Source of the DNA: Escherichia phage vB_EcoM-RPN187
Reading direction: 5' to 3' (one strand)
Sequence record: OL770074.2
Length of the DNA stretch: 64,000 nt
The position numbers were made by a program, and so were the translations under genes. This document shows positions 649-60,677 of the stretch, one piece after another (positions within the stretch are counted from its first letter, which is position 1; the number at the start of each line of letters is the position of its first letter). The notes under the pieces were generated by a model that was not told the DNA's origin, did no database searches, and was given only the letters and a program-made list of their open reading frames with translations.

Positions 649-2220
649 ATGAAATTTAATATCTTAAGTTTGTTTGCTCCATGGGCAAAAATGGACGAAC
701 GTGATTACAAAGACCAAGAAAAAGAAAATTTAGAATCTATCACCGCACCAAAATTGGACGACGGCGCTAAAGAATATGAAGTATCTGAAAATGAAGCACA
801 GCAAACATATAATGCTATGTTTCAGAGAATGTTCGGTAGTCAAGAACCAGGGCTCAAATCAACCCGTGAATTAATCGATACGTATCGAAATTTGATGACG
901 AACTATGAAGTGGATAACGCGGTCTCTGAAATAGTTTCCGATGCTATCGTGTATGAAGATGATACAGAAGTCGTTTCTATAAATTTAGACAACACAAAAT
1001 TTAGTCCAAATATCAAATCAATGATGTTGGATGAATTTAATGAAGTGTTAAATCATTTATCTTTCCAACGTAAAGGTTCAGATCATTTTAGACGTTGGTA
1101 TGTGGATTCTCGAATTTTCTTCCATAAAATTATTGACCCTAAACGCCCTAAAGAAGGTATTAAAGAGCTTCGTCGTTTAGACCCACGTCAAGTTCAATAT
1201 GTCCGTGAAGTTATTACAACCACTGAAGCCGGTGTTAAAATAGTCAAGGGTTATAAAGAATATTTCATTTATGACACATCACACGAATCTTATGCTTGTG
1301 ATGGTCGCATATATGAAGCCGGCACAAAAATAAAAATCCCTAAAGCCGCGATTGTTTATGCCCATTCTGGTTTAGTTGATTGTTGTGGTAAAAATATCAT
1401 TGGTTATTTGCATCGGGCTATTAAGCCGGCGAACCAATTAAAACTTCTTGAAGATGCCGTCGTAATTTATCGTATTACTCGTGCTCCTGATCGTCGTGTA
1501 TGGTATGTTGATACAGGTAATATGCCTTCAAGAAAAGCAGCCGAACATATGCAACATGTTATGAATACGATGAAAAACCGTATTGCGTATGATGCTACTA
1601 CAGGCAAGATTAAAAACCAGCAGCATATTATGTCGATGACCGAAGATTATTGGTTACAACGACGTGATGGTAAAGCGGTAACAGAAGTTGACACATTACC
1701 AGGTGCAGATAATACTGGAAATATGGAAGATGTACGTTGGTTCCGTAATGCGCTTTATATGGCTTTACGTATTCCTATTACCCGTATTCCAAGTGACCAA
1801 GGTGGTATACAGTTTGATGCTGGTACTTCTATTACACGAGATGAATTGACATTTGGTAAATTTATTCGTGAGCTGCAACATAAATTTGAAGAGATATTCC
1901 TAGACCCGCTTAAAACTAATTTAATTCTTAAAGGAATTATTACAGAAGATGAGTGGAATGATGAAATAAATAATATTAAGATAAAATTTCATCGGGATAG
2001 TTATTTCTCGGAATTAAAGGATGCTGAGATTCTGGAGCGTCGCATTAATATGCTTCAGATGGCCGAACCATTTATTGGTAAATATATTTCTCACAGAACA
2101 GCTATGAAAGATATTCTTCAGATGTCTGACGAGGAAATTGAACAAGAGGCTAAGCAAATTGAAGAAGAGTCGAAAGAGGCTCGTTTCCAAGACCCCGACC
2201 AAGAACAAGAGGATTTTTAA
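649..2220 (+). CDS. 20: portal vertex protein gp20
   Basis: 523-aa ORF, near-identical over long stretches to recalled T4 gp20 ([17 protein letters not shown]...[12 protein letters not shown]). Confidence 0.95.
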
Positions 2221-2450
2221 TGGACGATTTAATTCAAGCTATTAAATCAAACGACCTCGTTGCTACTCGAAAGTTTTTTGAAAGTGCAATGGCAGAAAAA
2301 ACGGTTCGTTTGATTGAAGCACGCAAAGCAGAAATCGCTTCTCAATTTTTGATTGAAGGCGAAGAACCCGAAGAAGAAGAGAAAGCTTCGGAAGACGACG
2401 CTGATGAAGGCGATGACGACGAAGACGAAGATGATGAGGACGATGAATAA
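2220..2450 (+). CDS. 67: prohead core protein gp67 with acidic C-terminal tail
   Basis: 76-aa ORF start-overlapping gene 20 stop (ATGA-type coupling); poly-D/E C-terminus; T4 synteny 20-67-68-21. Confidence 0.8.
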
Positions 2451-55592: not shown

Positions 55593-56252
55593 ATGGCAAC
55601 ACCAAAAGTATCATCTTCGCCTAGTGATATTCTATTTGGGTTGCTAGATCGTATTTTCAAAGATAACGCTACTGGAAAGGTTTTAATGTCTCGAGTAGCG
55701 GTAATTATTCTTTTGTTCCTAATGGCACTAATATGGTACAAAGGAAGTATTTTGCTGGATTATTATGTAAGAGCTAAGTATGATACTTATACTGAAATAA
55801 TCCAAAAAGAACGAGCTTTACGTTTTGAATCTGCGGCTCTAGAACAACTGCAAATAGTTCATATCTCATCTGGTGCAGATTTTAGTGCTGTGTATTCTTT
55901 CAGACCTAAAAACTTAAATTATTTCGTCGACCTTATAGCTTATGAAGGCAAACTACCTAGCACAATTTCTGAAAAGTCCCTTGGCGGATTCCCGGTGGAT
56001 AAAACGGCTAATGAATATATAATTCATTTAAGTGGCCGTCATTTCTCATCTAAATCAGAATTTGCATTTTTGCCTACAAAATCTAAGACTGCCGAACTTT
56101 CTTATATGTATAGTTGTCCATACTTTAATTTGGATAACATCTATGCTGGAACTGTGACGATGTATTGGTATAAGGGGAGTAATATACTTGAGGAAGATCG
56201 CTTAGCGGCTATATGCAACCAAGCGATCCGAATACTAGGAAGGGCTAAATAA
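55593..56252 (+). CDS. t: holin T
   Basis: 219-aa ORF near-identical to recalled T4 holin; SD AAGGAGG; one N-terminal TM helix and large periplasmic domain. Confidence 0.95.
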   Translation: MATPKVSSSPSDILFGLLDRIFKDNATGKVLMSRVAVIILLFLMALIWYKGSILLDYYVRAKYDTYTEIIQKERALRFESAALEQLQIVHISSGADFSAVYSFRPKNLNYFVDLIAYEGKLPSTISEKSLGGFPVDKTANEYIIHLSGRHFSSKSEFAFLPTKSKTAELSYMYSCPYFNLDNIYAGTVTMYWYKGSNILEEDRLAAICNQAIRILGRAK

Positions 56253-56525
56253 TTAGTTGTTAGAATACATCGCTAAATGACGATAAATATTTTCAAAACC
56301 TTCATTGAATTCACTAATCAGTGTTTTCTTTTCTTCGGCAGTTAAATTTGTAATTAGTTTTCTGAACGAATTCTGATTTAGCTGCCGACCATCTTTTTTA
56401 ATTCCAATCTCATTCAAGAATCCGATGAAACTTGCTCGGTCTTCAACAATATCTTCCCTAGAGAATTTAATCAAAATAGAAGCAATAGTAATAATTTCAC
56501 GTACGATTTCAATATCTTTATTCAT
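56253..56525 (-). CDS. asiA: AsiA anti-sigma70 factor
   Basis: 90-aa ORF near-identical to recalled T4 AsiA (MNK.I..VREIIT.ASILIKFSREDIVE.RA). Confidence 0.95.
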   Translation of the reverse strand: MNKDIEIVREIITIASILIKFSREDIVEDRASFIGFLNEIGIKKDGRQLNQNSFRKLITNLTAEEKKTLISEFNEGFENIYRHLAMYSNN

Positions 56526-56559
56526 AACGTTTTATTCATTCCACTTAGTTGATATGGAT

Positions 56560-56589
56560 ATAGTACCATTATCAGTGTTGATTGTAAAC
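56560..56589 (-). promoter_or_regulatory. T4 early-type promoter for asiA
   Basis: minus GTTTAC-N18-TACTAT. Confidence 0.5.
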
Positions 56590-56733
56590 GGCTTTTTCTA
56601 CGCTTTTAACGTAATTGGTATAGTCTTCCTGTTCATACGAGTGTAAGGCCAAGAACTGAACTAATAGTTCATTATAGACTAAAGCCTCACGCTCACGTTC
56701 GGCCTCTACTACGTTCTGAAGATTATGACTCAT
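56572..56733 (-). CDS. hypothetical protein
   Basis: about 53 aa from MSHNLQN; the 71-aa track ORF overlaps the upstream gene. Confidence 0.35.
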   Translation of the reverse strand: MSHNLQNVVEAEREREALVYNELLVQFLALHSYEQEDYTNYVKSVEKAVYNQH

Positions 56734-57022
56734 ATCGTTCCTTATAACTATCAATATAGTCCTGTATGTCGAAGAATGATATTTCATATTCTAGGGCATT
56801 AAGAGCCCGTTCTTCAGTATAGTCAGAACCAAAGACGATAGTGATTTCGCCAGGCTTCATGTGATTGAAATCAACACTAAAAGGAATACGAGAACATACT
56901 TCGTCTGCCATATCTGCAACAACACTACGGTATACTTCTCGGTTAACCTGATAAAGCTCTGCAAGTTCTTCACATTGAATAACAAGTTCAGTGGCAGGAT
57001 TTTCTTTGATTTTAGTAAGCAT
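56723..57022 (-). CDS. acidic small protein, candidate Arn (anti-restriction nuclease) homologue
   Basis: 99-aa ORF, strongly acidic; T4 Arn (92 aa) lies immediately upstream of asiA; assignment by position and composition only. Confidence 0.4.
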   Translation of the reverse strand: MLTKIKENPATELVIQCEELAELYQVNREVYRSVVADMADEVCSRIPFSVDFNHMKPGEITIVFGSDYTEERALNALEYEISFFDIQDYIDSYKERYES

Positions 57023-57096
57023 AGTCTTTACCCTTATGTTTTTGTTTGCGTTTAGATTGAAGTTCTGATTTCTTTTTGTCCTTATGAACAGAAGCC

Positions 57097-57324
57097 TTAT
57101 TGAAATCGTGTTTTGCTACAAGATTGTTCATAATGATTTATAACCTCATTTAAACATTTATCGGTAAAAGAAAACTTTTTAGCCACAGAACATTCGATAA
57201 TGTGCTCTTTCAAATCTTTAGAGTTGGTATATCCCATCTCAGTAATAAAGTGGCGAATTAAAGCTTTATTCTTATCATTAACAGAATTAAAATAATCTGC
57301 TTTAGAATCAATTATTCTCATCAT
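57097..57324 (-). CDS. hypothetical protein
   Basis: 75-aa ORF in arn-motA hyperplastic region. Confidence 0.45.
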   Translation of the reverse strand: MMRIIDSKADYFNSVNDKNKALIRHFITEMGYTNSKDLKEHIIECSVAKKFSFTDKCLNEVINHYEQSCSKTRFQ

Positions 57325-57589
57325 CTAATTTCCTTAATTGATATTGCAACGAGCTAATAATTTCTTCGTTCATTTTAATATACATATCACGCAAGAAAGG
57401 TTTTAACCCATCACGAATAATTGCTAACGTATCACCTTTACATAAATTAACCAAATAAGGATGGTCTAAAGCGTCCCAACCAGGCTGATTAGCATACATA
57501 CCATAGTTTTCTTCCATCATATGATTAAGACGTTTGATATCTTGGATACGTGATTCAATAGCATCTTTCTGGAGTTGTTTAATATTCAT
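57308..57589 (-). CDS. hypothetical protein
   Basis: 93-aa ORF. Confidence 0.5.
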   Translation of the reverse strand: MNIKQLQKDAIESRIQDIKRLNHMMEENYGMYANQPGWDALDHPYLVNLCKGDTLAIIRDGLKPFLRDMYIKMNEEIISSLQYQLRKLDDENN

Positions 57590-58050
57590 TAATAAAGGTC
57601 CTCTGAATAAAGTTCTTTCTCACTTCCGCCACGTTCAATACGTACCTGTCCAGCATACGTTGCAATAATCATTGCTTCTTCACGAGTCCAGTAATTAGAG
57701 TATTGGTCAATAAAGCCTTGGTCGTCACCACAAACTTGTTGCGAGACTAATTGAGGACCAACTATATCAAGTACTTCAGCCATATCTTTAGAGTAATGAC
57801 GAACTCCAGGAATAACCAGAGTTCCACCACTCTTCAATTTAAACCTATTAGCTGCACATACTATAACACGTTGAACTTTTTGGTCATTATTCCAATAGCA
57901 CGTTTGCCAACAGATTTCAGGAACTTCATTCATTATATCATCAGCAGAATAATTATAACCGTATGACTGGAATTTTTCTGCTAGACTTTCAGGAGTCTCA
58001 CGAGACAAGGCCAAATCTAATAGCTCTAAACGTTCTTTAAATGATTTCAT
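57589..58050 (-). CDS. hypothetical protein
   Basis: 153-aa ORF, ATGA-coupled to neighbours. Confidence 0.5.
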
Positions 58051-58376
58051 TTAAACCATTCCTTAATACGTTGCCAAATAGATTTTTGTTCTTGTTTATT
58101 TACACCGATCGAACGAATAACCGGTTGTGACTGCTGGTATTCTTTATAATCTTCTTTATAGATTTCGTAAGCTGCATCAACAAATGAACTGATCGCTGCC
58201 ATGTAGTTTTTACTAAGGCCAAATGGTGCGTCATTATTTTCACGAATAACCATATATTGGCCCGCTTTAATCTTTACAATTGTCCCTAAATAAGCCCCGT
58301 GGTACCAAATATCCCATCCTTCCTGAGTAGGTTCTGCACATTTACGAAGTTCGTTAATAATATTCAGCTTATTCAT
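58047..58376 (-). CDS. hypothetical protein
   Basis: 109-aa ORF. Confidence 0.5.
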
Positions 58377-58386
58377 TATGTATTCC

Positions 58387-59019
58387 TCACAGTACGTTAG
58401 TTACAAGGGTAATGATTTCTTTGGATACATTAGGGAAGTCAATGTAAGTATATTTACCACCGATCTTAATCTTAACATCGTTTTCAAGAGAAGTAAACAG
58501 TTTTGATTCAGTTTCTGACATGTTGTATGCAAATATTCTAAGACAACCATCTCGACGAATTTCAATCTGACGAATACCTAGAACTCGTTTTGCAAATCGA
58601 ACTTCCAAGTTACTACGGTTTTCACCAATTTCTTTAACTTCAACTTTATCTTTAATATTTTCAAAAACAAAGTTTGCTAATTCATGCATTTCGGGAGTAA
58701 CTCCACGTGCTTTTCTAGTGTTACGTTTCTGAAGAAGTTCTGGAGCATTTTCTTGGGCAAAGAGGTCTGCAGCTTTTTGGATAATATCCATTGCTTCGCC
58801 TGTTGCTATAAGTCCATCACCGGATTTTTCGACTAAACCTTTCTTAATCAATACACCAATGTTAGAGTTAACAACCGATGCATTGTATTCCGCTTCCAGA
58901 GCTTCACGGACATTGGCAGCAGTGGTGAAGTTGTTCTTAATGATATAAACCATTATTGCAGCAGTTTTTTCATTCAGAGCGTTTTCAGAAGCTTTGATGA
59001 TGTAAGCAACTTTAGACAT
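58387..59019 (-). CDS. motA: MotA middle-transcription activator
   Basis: 210-aa ORF; N-terminus MSKV.YIIKAS...LNEKTA and VLIKKGLVEKSGDGLI match recalled T4 MotA. Confidence 0.9.
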   Translation of the reverse strand: MSKVAYIIKASENALNEKTAAIMVYIIKNNFTTAANVREALEAEYNASVVNSNIGVLIKKGLVEKSGDGLIATGEAMDIIQKAADLFAQENAPELLQKRNTRKARGVTPEMHELANFVFENIKDKVEVKEIGENRSNLEVRFAKRVLGIRQIEIRRDGCLRIFAYNMSETESKLFTSLENDVKIKIGGKYTYIDFPNVSKEIITLVTNVL

Positions 59020-59058
59020 TTTATTTCTCCAATTTGGTTGTTTTGTTTTGATAGGTCT

Positions 59059-59087
59059 ATAATATCATGTTTGAAGCACATGTAAAC
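59059..59087 (-). promoter_or_regulatory. T4 early-type promoter for motA
   Basis: minus GTTTAC-N17-TATTAT. Confidence 0.5.
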
Positions 59088-59114
59088 TGTTTTGTGAGAA
59101 AAAATGCACAAAAA

Positions 59115-59128
59115 GGAGCCGAAGCTCC
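59115..59128 (-). terminator. UUCG-tetraloop hairpin downstream of gene 52
   Basis: GGAGC-CGAAG-CTCC, followed on minus by T5. Confidence 0.6.
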
Positions 59129-59205
59129 CTAATCATGTTTGTCCAACCAATACAGCCAAATCACTAGTGCAGCTATTGCACCGAGAAATCCCAAGGCTAG
59201 GGCAC

Positions 59206-60531
59206 TCAAAGTGCCTCCAAGTCTTTAGTGTACTCTGTCACAACATCAGTAGACTTCCAATACTCATTTTCTTCTTTCTTAGCTTTAGCTTCTTCTGCTA
59301 GTTTACGTGCTTCGTCAGAAGTGATATGGAAGATGTTAAGACCTACCAGTTTATCGACATGTTCTTTGTACATTTCGATTTGTGTTAGCTCTTCAGTCAA
59401 AGCTTTACGAGTCTTGCCTTGAATCACAATTTCACCGTTGATAACTTTTTTGATGAAGTGTGCCTTAGCAAAAGCAAGTTTAAATGCTTTTTCAGATTCA
59501 AGGATTTTGTTATCAATACGTTTCTGAACGTAAGTCTTACGGACTTCAACAAAATCTTTGATTAAGTCCACTACGTTATCGTAGACCGCTAATTTACCCT
59601 TTTCATTAATCACTGTGATGTTTTGTGAACGACGTTCGATGAGACTAAAATCTTTCATGATTTTTTCATGACGTAGCTCTTCATCATCAGGAAGCGAGTA
59701 CTCTTTACGGAACTTCACCTTAAACCCAAAGCCGTGTTCACCACAATCGTCTTCCCATGAGATTAGACCTTTGTCTTCCAATGGGTCAAGAACCTTACTC
59801 ACATACGTTTCACGGTCGAATTTATATGGGATTTCAGTTATCTGCATTTGAGTGCGAGATGTGAACTTATACGTTCCGTGAATCTCATAACGCCCATCAA
59901 CTTCATGTACTTCACCACGGAATTCCGGGAATTCAACTTTTGGCTTAGTGACATTTTTACCTTGAAGAGCTTGTAATACAGCCTTTTTGACTGATTTAAA
60001 ACTATGAGGCAGAATATTTGTTGCGTAACCGGTTGCAATACCAGATACGCCGTTCAAAAGAACTGTCGGAATAATAGGAAGATAGAATTTTGGTGGAATG
60101 TGTTCTTTATCTTCATGAGCTGGAGCATATTCAGTATCTTTATATACGTTATAGAAATTTTTACTTACACGTGCAAAAATATAACGAGATGCTGCAGCTT
60201 TTTGGACTGTTCGAGAACCAAAGTTGCCTTGGCCATCTAACAGTGGATAGTTGTTGTTCCATGTGTTAGCCATCAATGCACCTGCATCTTGTGCAGAAGA
60301 TTCACCATGGTGATAACCTAAATCTGCAACACCGCCTGCAATTGACGCAAGTTTATGAAATTTTTCTTTATTACCACGAGCCAAATCTAACGCACGATGA
60401 ACCACAAAACGTTGAACCGGCTTAAATCCATCAATCATGTTTGGGATTGCACGGTTTTCAACGGTGTACATCGCATATGCTAAGGCTTCGTTATCAATAA
60501 TACTTTTTAGATTACGAGAATTCAATTCCAT
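59206..60531 (-). CDS. 52: DNA topoisomerase II medium subunit gp52
   Basis: 441-aa ORF (T4 gp52 442 aa); GyrA-like N-terminal region. Confidence 0.93.
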   Translation of the reverse strand: MELNSRNLKSIIDNEALAYAMYTVENRAIPNMIDGFKPVQRFVVHRALDLARGNKEKFHKLASIAGGVADLGYHHGESSAQDAGALMANTWNNNYPLLDGQGNFGSRTVQKAAASRYIFARVSKNFYNVYKDTEYAPAHEDKEHIPPKFYLPIIPTVLLNGVSGIATGYATNILPHSFKSVKKAVLQALQGKNVTKPKVEFPEFRGEVHEVDGRYEIHGTYKFTSRTQMQITEIPYKFDRETYVSKVLDPLEDKGLISWEDDCGEHGFGFKVKFRKEYSLPDDEELRHEKIMKDFSLIERRSQNITVINEKGKLAVYDNVVDLIKDFVEVRKTYVQKRIDNKILESEKAFKLAFAKAHFIKKVINGEIVIQGKTRKALTEELTQIEMYKEHVDKLVGLNIFHITSDEARKLAEEAKAKKEENEYWKSTDVVTEYTKDLEAL

Positions 60532-60677
60532 AATTTTACCATACTAGTGAATGGAATAGCCATAATAACATCGGAAATAAAAAGCACAACTTGAATTATC
60601 CCGAACATTACTCCATAATACAGCGCTACCAATAAAGCAGCAAGGGCTAACGAGTAGCCCAAGATTTTATTAATCAT
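60522..60677 (-). CDS. small membrane protein (52.1/ac region)
   Basis: 51 aa from MINKILGYSLALAALLVALYYG; two hydrophobic helices. Confidence 0.45.
   Translation of the reverse strand: MINKILGYSLALAALLVALYYGVMFGIIQVVLFISDVIMAIPFTSMVKLWN

Follow-up and report, generated by a model that had tools for sequence, protein, structure and literature searches.

The Arn protein of phage T4 inhibits McrBC restriction of DNA that carries non-glucosylated hydroxymethylcytosine (hmC), and it has been modeled as a DNA mimic that binds McrB (PMC12707154). The same protein is reported to bind H-NS in vitro and to block DNA binding by H-NS (Ho et al. 2014, as summarized in PMC12707154). It also inhibits PUA-Cal-HAD, an activity that is abolished by the single change N70S, and T2 Arn does not bind PUA-Cal-HAD (PMC12871103). 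A functional analogy has been proposed between Arn and the T7 protein Ocr as well as ArdA, which are small, strongly acidic, early-expressed blockers of DNA-binding defense enzymes, of phage or plasmid origin; Ocr, ArdA, Arn and Gam have been called non-homologous (PMC12707154). Here we describe a gene, termed o99 for the 99 amino acids (aa) of its product, that lies between asiA and motA in Escherichia phage vB_EcoM-RPN187 (sequence record OL770074.2), from which a stretch of 64,000 nucleotides (nt), hereafter called the window, was analyzed. Sequence comparisons make it very probable that o99 is a remote homologue of T4 Arn and thus belongs to an Arn superfamily.

In T4, the arn gene is located downstream of arn.1 and a 39-aa gene and is the second gene upstream of asiA, and o99 occupies this same slot. 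An initial annotation of the region had placed the acidic gene directly upstream of asiA, which is off by one gene because a 53-aa gene (o53) intervenes; its statement that the position is that of T4 arn is correct because both genes are second in line. The encoded protein is indeed strongly acidic, as that annotation claimed, with an isoelectric point (pI) of 4.29, 21 Asp and Glu residues versus 9 Lys and Arg residues, and a net charge of -12. It ranks third for negative charge per residue among the 90 non-overlapping open reading frames (ORFs) of the window, and the two ORFs that are more acidic match PHROG families labeled ‘prohead’ and ‘DNA helicase’. The most acidic of all (2220-2450, plus strand; 76 aa, 41% Asp plus Glu, net charge -23, prohead PHROG 1064) is probably an ordinary prohead core protein of the T4 gp67 type and no candidate for a DNA mimic.

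Homology between o99 and Arn becomes visible only once intermediate sequences are added. The first hint was a match of o99 to PHROG 3151, the Arn family (E value 0.005), in which residues 13-89 align collinearly with positions 11-86 of the 87 in the profile. These PHROG matches are reciprocal, as evident by the match of T4 Arn to PHROG 8202, the family of o99, with an E value of 0.0054. A word-indexed search for homologues of o99 returned six near-identical proteins only, and an exhaustive search of 1.84 billion representative proteins supplied two others (P0018 and P0019). The first of these is 61% identical to o99 and matches PHROG 3151 with an E value of 4.6e-6. The second, a metagenomic protein of 91 aa, bridges the two families: across 89 aa it is 31% identical to o99 (E 2e-16 as a pair and 4e-6 for the whole library), and across 90 aa its identity to T4 Arn is 33% (pairwise E 7e-11). 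It scores 16 bits against the Pfam family DM_Arn (E 0.015). When used as a tblastn query, P0019 matches genes of the RB69ORF259c type as well as others that carry the annotation ‘inhibitor of MrcBC restriction’, and on its own metagenomic contig the P0019 gene sits in the same slot, beside asiA and a holin gene. A third match from the exhaustive search (P0020), a repetitive protein of 1468 aa with no matched stretch, was dismissed as spurious.

Profiles that include such intermediates recover the same relationship. For a profile of the o99 family with P0018 and P0019 added, the best match among PDB sequences is 3wx4_A, which is T4 Arn (E 2.2e-4; residues 8-91 against 6-92), and in hhalign this alignment reaches 86.5% with the Arn family (E 4.6e-6, 84 columns). 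A separate profile was built from nine slot proteins of other genera and has no T4-type or window-type members. Its scores are 28.3 bits for T4 Arn and 27.4 bits for o99, and it also detects P0018 and P0019 but no other member of a set of 300 six-frame ORFs taken from the window and the T4 locus. When seven of these proteins were used in a comparable third-party alignment, hhalign gave 78% with the Arn family and 94% with the o99 family. Not all of these lines of evidence are independent, as it was similarity to o99 or T4 Arn that had brought up both the bridging protein and the slot-protein profile. An alignment of five types of the family reveals a common hydrophobic pattern, acidic columns conserved in helix 2 and in the C-terminal helix and motif, and a C-terminal acidic-aromatic motif, [DE]-[YF]-x-[IL]-x-D-Y, with net charges of the five types ranging from -9 to -16. 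The conserved acidic columns would be compatible with, and are no proof of, a homodimer in which carboxylates on the surface imitate the phosphates of double-stranded DNA.

An AlphaFold2 model of o99 has a mean predicted local distance difference test (pLDDT) score of 85.7 and the element order beta-beta-alpha-alpha-beta-beta-alpha-alpha. Foldseek comparison of this model with the PDB places 3wx4 first, with a probability of 1.00, a template modeling (TM) score of 0.69 under both normalizations, and 90 aligned columns of 17% identity, whereas the next match has a TM score of only 0.33. The model therefore predicts that o99 keeps the alpha/beta fold of Arn.

These results bear on the alternative that the resemblance to Arn is due to chance, in which case o99, a small acidic protein, would have no relation to Arn and would sit in the slot by coincidence. 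We consider this explanation highly improbable. It would have to account for full-length, collinear bridging homology through P0019, for a profile of other genera that matches both o99 and T4 Arn, for PHROG matches in both directions, for a single top structural match by two methods, and for the use of the same slot in at least four lineages. The initial annotation had called the acidic ORF Arn-like, and this description holds as far as sequence and predicted structure can carry it. The alignment and structure comparisons with T4 Arn that it had suggested reveal similarity, by way of profiles, intermediates and the fold, and o99 combines this full-length homology with the slot, the small size and the acidity of an Arn protein.

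A direct comparison of the two proteins brings out both likenesses and differences. T4 Arn (3WX4; PF22134; PHROG 3151) is 92 aa long with a pI of 4.55, and it aligns collinearly with o99 with two small indels and with the hydrophobic core pattern kept. The C-terminal motif reads D-Y-E-I-E-D-Y-F in T4 Arn and F-F-D-I-Q-D-Y-I in o99. In contrast, identity between the two is only ~18%, residue N70 of T4 Arn, which is critical for inhibition of PUA-Cal-HAD, is not conserved in o99, and o99 carries a C-terminal extension of seven residues. The phages also differ in their DNA, which is modified with arabinosyl-hmC in the phage that bears o99 and with glucosyl-hmC in T4. The comparisons made here detected no similarity between o99 and Ocr or ArdA, which have different folds.

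Several observations weigh against the view that o99 is a diverged arn orthologue that works as T4 Arn does. BLASTP of o99 against T4 Arn gives 21% identity over 38 aa, which is not significant, phmmer of PDB sequences with o99 does not recover 3WX4, and hhalign of two shallow family alignments, one for o99 and one for Arn, gives 4%. Likewise, o99 has no match to Pfam DM_Arn (PF22134), even at E <= 10, in a search in which T4 Arn scores 186.7 bits and for which the gathering score is 26 bits. Therefore, in the strict sense of Pfam DM_Arn, o99 is outside the Arn family. The AlphaFold2 model was built on seven near-identical sequences, and the 3WX4 structure was released in 2014 and was probably within the training set of AlphaFold2; because of these two circumstances, the fold match is corroboration and not independent proof. 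Finally, at 18% identity to T4 Arn, the target of o99 may have changed. With these points taken into account, we regard a diverged arn orthologue with a T4-Arn-like mechanism as the best explanation of o99, with a probability of roughly 55%.

Under this explanation, o99 would be produced early or in the middle period of infection and would display a DNA-like acidic surface that fills the site at which a host protein binds DNA. Its target would most probably be a modification-dependent (type IV, McrBC-like) restriction enzyme. The DNA of Mosigvirus phages, the genus to which close relatives of this phage belong where taxonomy was checked, is hydroxymethyl-arabinosylated (PMC8594841), and their nascent hmC DNA would thus face the same restriction threat that confronts T4. 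By blocking such an enzyme, o99 could shield newly made hydroxymethylcytosine DNA until it is arabinosylated. By analogy with T4 Arn, the chances that o99 blocks a type IV, McrBC-like enzyme as an acidic mimic of DNA seem about evenly balanced; dimerization, DNA mimicry and the identity of the target are features that we infer for o99.

The main competing explanation holds that o99 retains the Arn fold yet is aimed at something other than McrBC, such as a GmrSD/BrxU-like type IV enzyme that acts on arabinosyl-hmC or hmC DNA, PUA-Cal-HAD, or another DNA-binding defense protein. Since Arn specificity can switch with a single residue, the target of o99 may differ from that of T4 Arn, and one residue already separates the target ranges of T4 and T2 Arn (PMC12871103). 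The low identity to T4 Arn (~18%) is in keeping with this idea, as is the manner in which similarity between T4 and window DNA is lost: identity is ~80% through the 3′ end of arn.1 and the 39-aa gene and collapses exactly at the arn start codon.

Variation of the slot among T-even phages also bears on retargeting. We fetched 33 IMG/VR loci with an AsiA alignment and mapped their genes, and found a recurring block of motA, arn.4, arn.3, arn.2, (arn.1), (39-aa gene), [Arn-like], (asiA.1-like) and asiA on contigs whose AsiA is 51-100% identical to that of the window. A hidden Markov model from five seeds detects an acidic Arn-like ORF in 22 of the 33 loci, mostly in the same slot. Nineteen of these ORFs encode 88-99 aa with a net charge of -9 to -16, and the other three, of the Pectobacterium-phage type, were called as 116-117 aa with a net charge of -4 to -6, probably because an upstream ATG was taken. 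At least seven mutually divergent allele types occur (T4, window, Dhakavirus (IME341), CC31/PG7-like, Merlin/CF1-like, EcS1-like and Pectobacterium-phage-like), and the five divergent types that were tested all lack a match to Pfam DM_Arn. The Dhakavirus type has its Arn-like gene in the same slot, whereas in Merlin/CF1-like contigs this gene lies between arn.3 and arn.2 and not beside asiA.1, and several Dhakavirus-like loci lack it, with the 39-aa gene, if there is one, directly adjoining the asiA.1-like gene. The window-type allele is also found in some Tequatrovirus phages (phiD1, slur03 and G2540), and Yersinia phage phiD1 carries the whole window-type module. The slot allele therefore does not follow the sugar modification of the phage DNA. 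From these sequence comparisons, the Arn-like gene appears to behave as a mobile, dispensable allele.

At least seven divergent types, with the gene lost or relocated in some phages, form a pattern that fits an arms-race gene, and an allele distribution independent of sugar modification likewise favors retargeting. Against it, no particular alternative target is indicated, a common core mechanism is suggested by the conserved acidic columns and the C-terminal motif, and McrBC is the sole target with genetic evidence for any member of the family. We therefore judge retargeting away from McrBC to be unlikely, though less so than the other alternatives, and continue to favor a T4-Arn-like mechanism for o99. 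A broader proposal, which we advance tentatively and at somewhat less than even odds, is that the arn slot houses one hypervariable superfamily of ~90-aa, acidic, DNA-mimic-like proteins, of which only the T4 type is recognized by Pfam and by annotation. Its alleles would be swapped from genus to genus, lost or relocated, and each would neutralize different host DNA-binding defenses and not only McrBC.

Another candidate role is that of a host-takeover factor, in which o99 mainly binds H-NS, or another nucleoid or transcription protein, and so relieves silencing of AT-rich phage DNA. T4 Arn has been reported to bind H-NS and to block its DNA binding (PMC12707154), and o99 lies within one tightly coupled block between the middle-transcription takeover genes motA and asiA, co-expression with which would be in keeping with this role. 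Such a role is nevertheless improbable as the principal function, given that arn is defined in vivo by an anti-McrBC phenotype and that some relatives do without the gene while retaining motA and asiA. Moreover, a role in binding H-NS would be compatible with the T4-Arn-like mechanism and is not a true alternative to it.

The interval 56200-59100 matches 222 phage records, mostly of T-even phages of E. coli and Shigella, among which Escherichia phage HY126 is 98.4% identical. The layout around the asiA-motA block is the same as that of T4 positions 159.5-165.5 kb. On the plus strand upstream, ORFs of 183 and 219 aa are the counterparts of T4 genes 38 and t (holin), judged from their position and from how relatives are annotated, and the minus strand also carries the gene for the topoisomerase medium subunit gp52. 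Seven small genes run on the minus strand from asiA to motA (Table 1).

Table 1. Genes and putative promoters of the asiA-motA region of vB_EcoM-RPN187, in window coordinates.
Feature	Coordinates	Strand	Evidence
asiA, anti-sigma-70 factor, 90 aa, downstream boundary	56253..56525	-	Pfam AsiA E 2e-32; 73% identity to T4 AsiA (BLASTP)
Putative sigma-70-like promoter match TTTACA-17-TACTAT with TG, lying within the 46 nt ahead of asiA	56560..56588	-	consensus scan only
o53, 53-aa acidic protein, positional counterpart of T4 asiA.1	56572..56733	-	PHROG 5245 E 2e-30
o99, 99-aa acidic protein, diverged Arn homologue (very probable; RB69ORF259c family, PHROG 8202)	56723..57022	-	
o39, 39-aa basic microprotein (DUF7230), overlapping both neighbors	57012..57131	-	Pfam DUF7230 E 5e-13; PHROG 1359 E 4e-22
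o75, 75 aa, arn.1 orthologue	57097..57324	-	76% identity to T4 Arn.1 over 38 C-terminal residues; PHROG 4452 E 7e-40
o93, 93 aa, arn.2 orthologue	57308..57589	-	41% identity to T4 Arn.2 over 90 aa, E 3e-21; PHROG 1844
o153, 153 aa, arn.3 orthologue	57589..58050	-	76% identity to T4 Arn.3 (BLASTP)
o109, 109 aa, arn.4 orthologue	58047..58376	-	74% identity to T4 Arn.4 over 68 aa; PHROG 1594 E 2e-52
motA, middle-transcription activator, 210 aa, upstream boundary	58387..59019	-	Pfam MotA_activ E 5e-39, MotCF E 3e-8; 51% identity to T4 MotA
Best regional sigma-70-like promoter match TTTACA-16-TATTAT, 10/12, with TG, upstream of motA	59059..59086	-	consensus scan

Successive genes of the block overlap by 11, 11, 35, 17, 1 and 4 nt, which agrees with the tight coupling proposed initially, and the sole gaps are the 10 nt from the motA stop to the arn.4 start and the 46 nt before asiA. 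The gene order of T4 (asiA, asiA.1, arn, arn.1 to arn.4, motA) is identical to that of the window, with o99 in the arn slot. The interval is therefore the Mosigvirus form of a conserved T-even ‘arn operon’ of seven translationally coupled genes, each of which has its counterpart by position in T4 (asiA.1, arn, a 39-aa gene of DUF7230 that is unannotated there, arn.1, arn.2, arn.3 and arn.4). Because all seven are kept as proteins in several T-even genera, none of them is a chance ORF, and related Mosigvirus records likewise annotate seven coding sequences in the interval. The six small minus-strand ORFs of the initial annotation are real and correctly placed, but the 39-aa gene at 57012-57131 had been missed. 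The other ORFs had been described as lacking recognizable motifs, which proved wrong, since o75, o93, o153 and o109 are clear orthologues of T4 arn.1-arn.4, o53 shares the N-terminus of AsiA.1, and o39 belongs to DUF7230. The term ‘hyperplastic region’ was also too strong for this locus. T4 and the window are fully syntenic, with strong sequence divergence only in arn and asiA.1, and the interval is a conserved operon and no hotspot of gene content between the two genera. In more distant genera, arn itself has been lost or moved.

The start of o53 was assigned from several observations. The mechanically defined ORF encodes 71 aa, the PHROG 5245 match begins at residue 19, relatives annotate a gene of 162 nt, and an AAGGA Shine-Dalgarno sequence lies 5 nt before the internal ATG of the 53-aa form. 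Only the N-terminus is shared between o53 and T4 AsiA.1 (BLASTP E 0.002), and T4 AsiA.1 itself matches PHROG 5245 across its N-terminal 28 aa (E 2.6e-4). The two best conserved genes of the cluster are o153 (arn.3) and o75 (arn.1).

The match of o39 to DUF7230 exceeds the curated cut-off, and T4 carries an intact, unannotated homologue of 79% identity (MNNLVAKHNFNKASVHKDKKKAFKESNRKQKHKGKVYDY) at positions 2084-2200 (minus strand) of the T4 locus used here (L002), about NC_000866 161583-161699. This T4 gene occupies what looks like a gap between arn.1 and arn. Across genera the peptide is conserved, with an invariant ...RKQKHKG, and substitutions by codon position number 70/64/288. Because they fall mostly at third codon positions, o39 is a real microprotein. 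An ArfA-like ribosome-rescue function, suspected from the basic, Lys/Arg-rich pattern, was considered and rejected: a profile search of the PDB returned nothing at E <= 10, and hhalign against ArfA gave 0.4%.

At two genes of the operon, the annotated T4 start differs from that of the window. T4 arn.4 is annotated as 68 aa, but the preceding 41 codons form an open frame whose product is almost the same as the N-terminus of o109 (window 58254-58376; L002 3335-3460). The start codon of the 109-aa form, which is ATG in the window and in wild T4-type contigs (L007-L013), is ATA in reference T4, which would be explained by either a start-codon mutation or a non-canonical start. Similarly, the 70-nt ‘intergenic region’ between T4 arn.2 and arn.1 (L002 2307-2376) corresponds by homology, and in the same frame, to the first 29 codons of o75. 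The upstream reading frame of T4 arn.1 (..INSKSDYFNSLNDKDKNLIRHFIVE-MGYT) lacks an ATG but has a TTG after AAGGTG, and T4 Arn.1 may thus be longer than annotated, with its upstream ‘spacer’ being coding sequence.

In T2, the middle transcript of the arn operon is stabilized against RNase E by the host small RNA ArcZ, and the 70-nt spacer between arn.2 and arn.1 has been proposed to carry the RNase E site that ArcZ controls (bioRxiv 10.64898/2026.06.19.733364). The T2/T4 operon (arn.4-arn.3-arn.2-arn.1-arn) has the same genes in the same order as the window and is also tightly packed downstream of motA. In place of the spacer, however, arn.2 and arn.1 of the window overlap by 17 nt (57308-57324), and an intergenic region of 70 nt bearing an RNase E site is therefore lacking as such. 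Positions +285 to +294 of T4 arn.2 (CCAGGGAAAT) are complementary to ArcZ and match the ArcZ site stated in the preprint, whereas CCAGGGAAAT is absent from the operon mRNA of the window. This comparison concerns the presence or absence of a 10-nt motif only, since RNAduplex let the whole small RNA pair, including its terminator. Control by ArcZ of the T2 type probably does not apply to the window operon in the same form.

Candidate promoters were sought by consensus scan. The asiA-motA region has fewer sigma-70-like matches than shuffled sequence, and the best regional match, upstream of motA, is a candidate start for a transcript that runs from motA to o53. No MotA box (TGCTTNA-N10-14-TANNNT) is present within 56200-59300; the closest one (60615-60639) lies upstream of gene 52.

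Annotation of the o99 family has not reflected a relationship to Arn. The protein belongs to the RB69ORF259c / PHROG 8202 family (E 7e-54), which has had no earlier functional or superfamily assignment and shows no structural difference from o99. By tblastn, 178 phage records carry a relative of o99, ~165 of them at 80-99% identity, and all 28 records listed in that range give it as ‘hypothetical protein’, as ‘protein of unknown function’ or without annotation. In public records such as that of vB_Eco_F27 (OP870146.1; L039 898-2177), the homologues of arn.1 to arn.4 are labeled ‘anti-restriction nuclease’ and the Arn-like gene is labeled ‘hypothetical’. The arn.1-arn.4 genes of the T2 operon have no known function (bioRxiv 10.64898/2026.06.19.733364), and for this reason the label on their homologues seems to have spread from the gene names. 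In the rows considered from Supplementary Table 3 of a 2021 survey of Tevenvirinae (PMC8056088), the Arn column is empty for every Group II (RB69-like) phage, including RB69, JS09 and mar005P1, and also for the Group I phages slur03, slur14, slur08, phiD1, Aplg8 and G2540. By tblastn, slur03, phiD1 and G2540 match o99 at 93-96%, and slur14 is matched by P0019. We found no paper linking RB69 or Mosigvirus to Arn and McrBC, and the assignment of o99 to Arn appears to be new, albeit incremental.

These findings suggest that RB69-like phages, although listed as lacking Arn in a published survey, carry a diverged relative of this protein. They provide a testable function for a gene labeled ‘hypothetical protein’ wherever checked among ~180 Mosigvirus and Tequatrovirus genomes, and they expose an annotation error by which homologues of arn.1-arn.4 carry the label of Arn while the actual Arn relative is unlabeled. 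This knowledge could be of use for the discovery of anti-defense genes and for the choice of therapeutic T-even phages against strains that carry type IV restriction. Arn seems to represent one branch of a far wider and rapidly evolving family that resides in a fixed genomic slot, and if the alleles of this slot do neutralize different host defenses, then the arn slot would constitute a natural library of anti-defense specificities.

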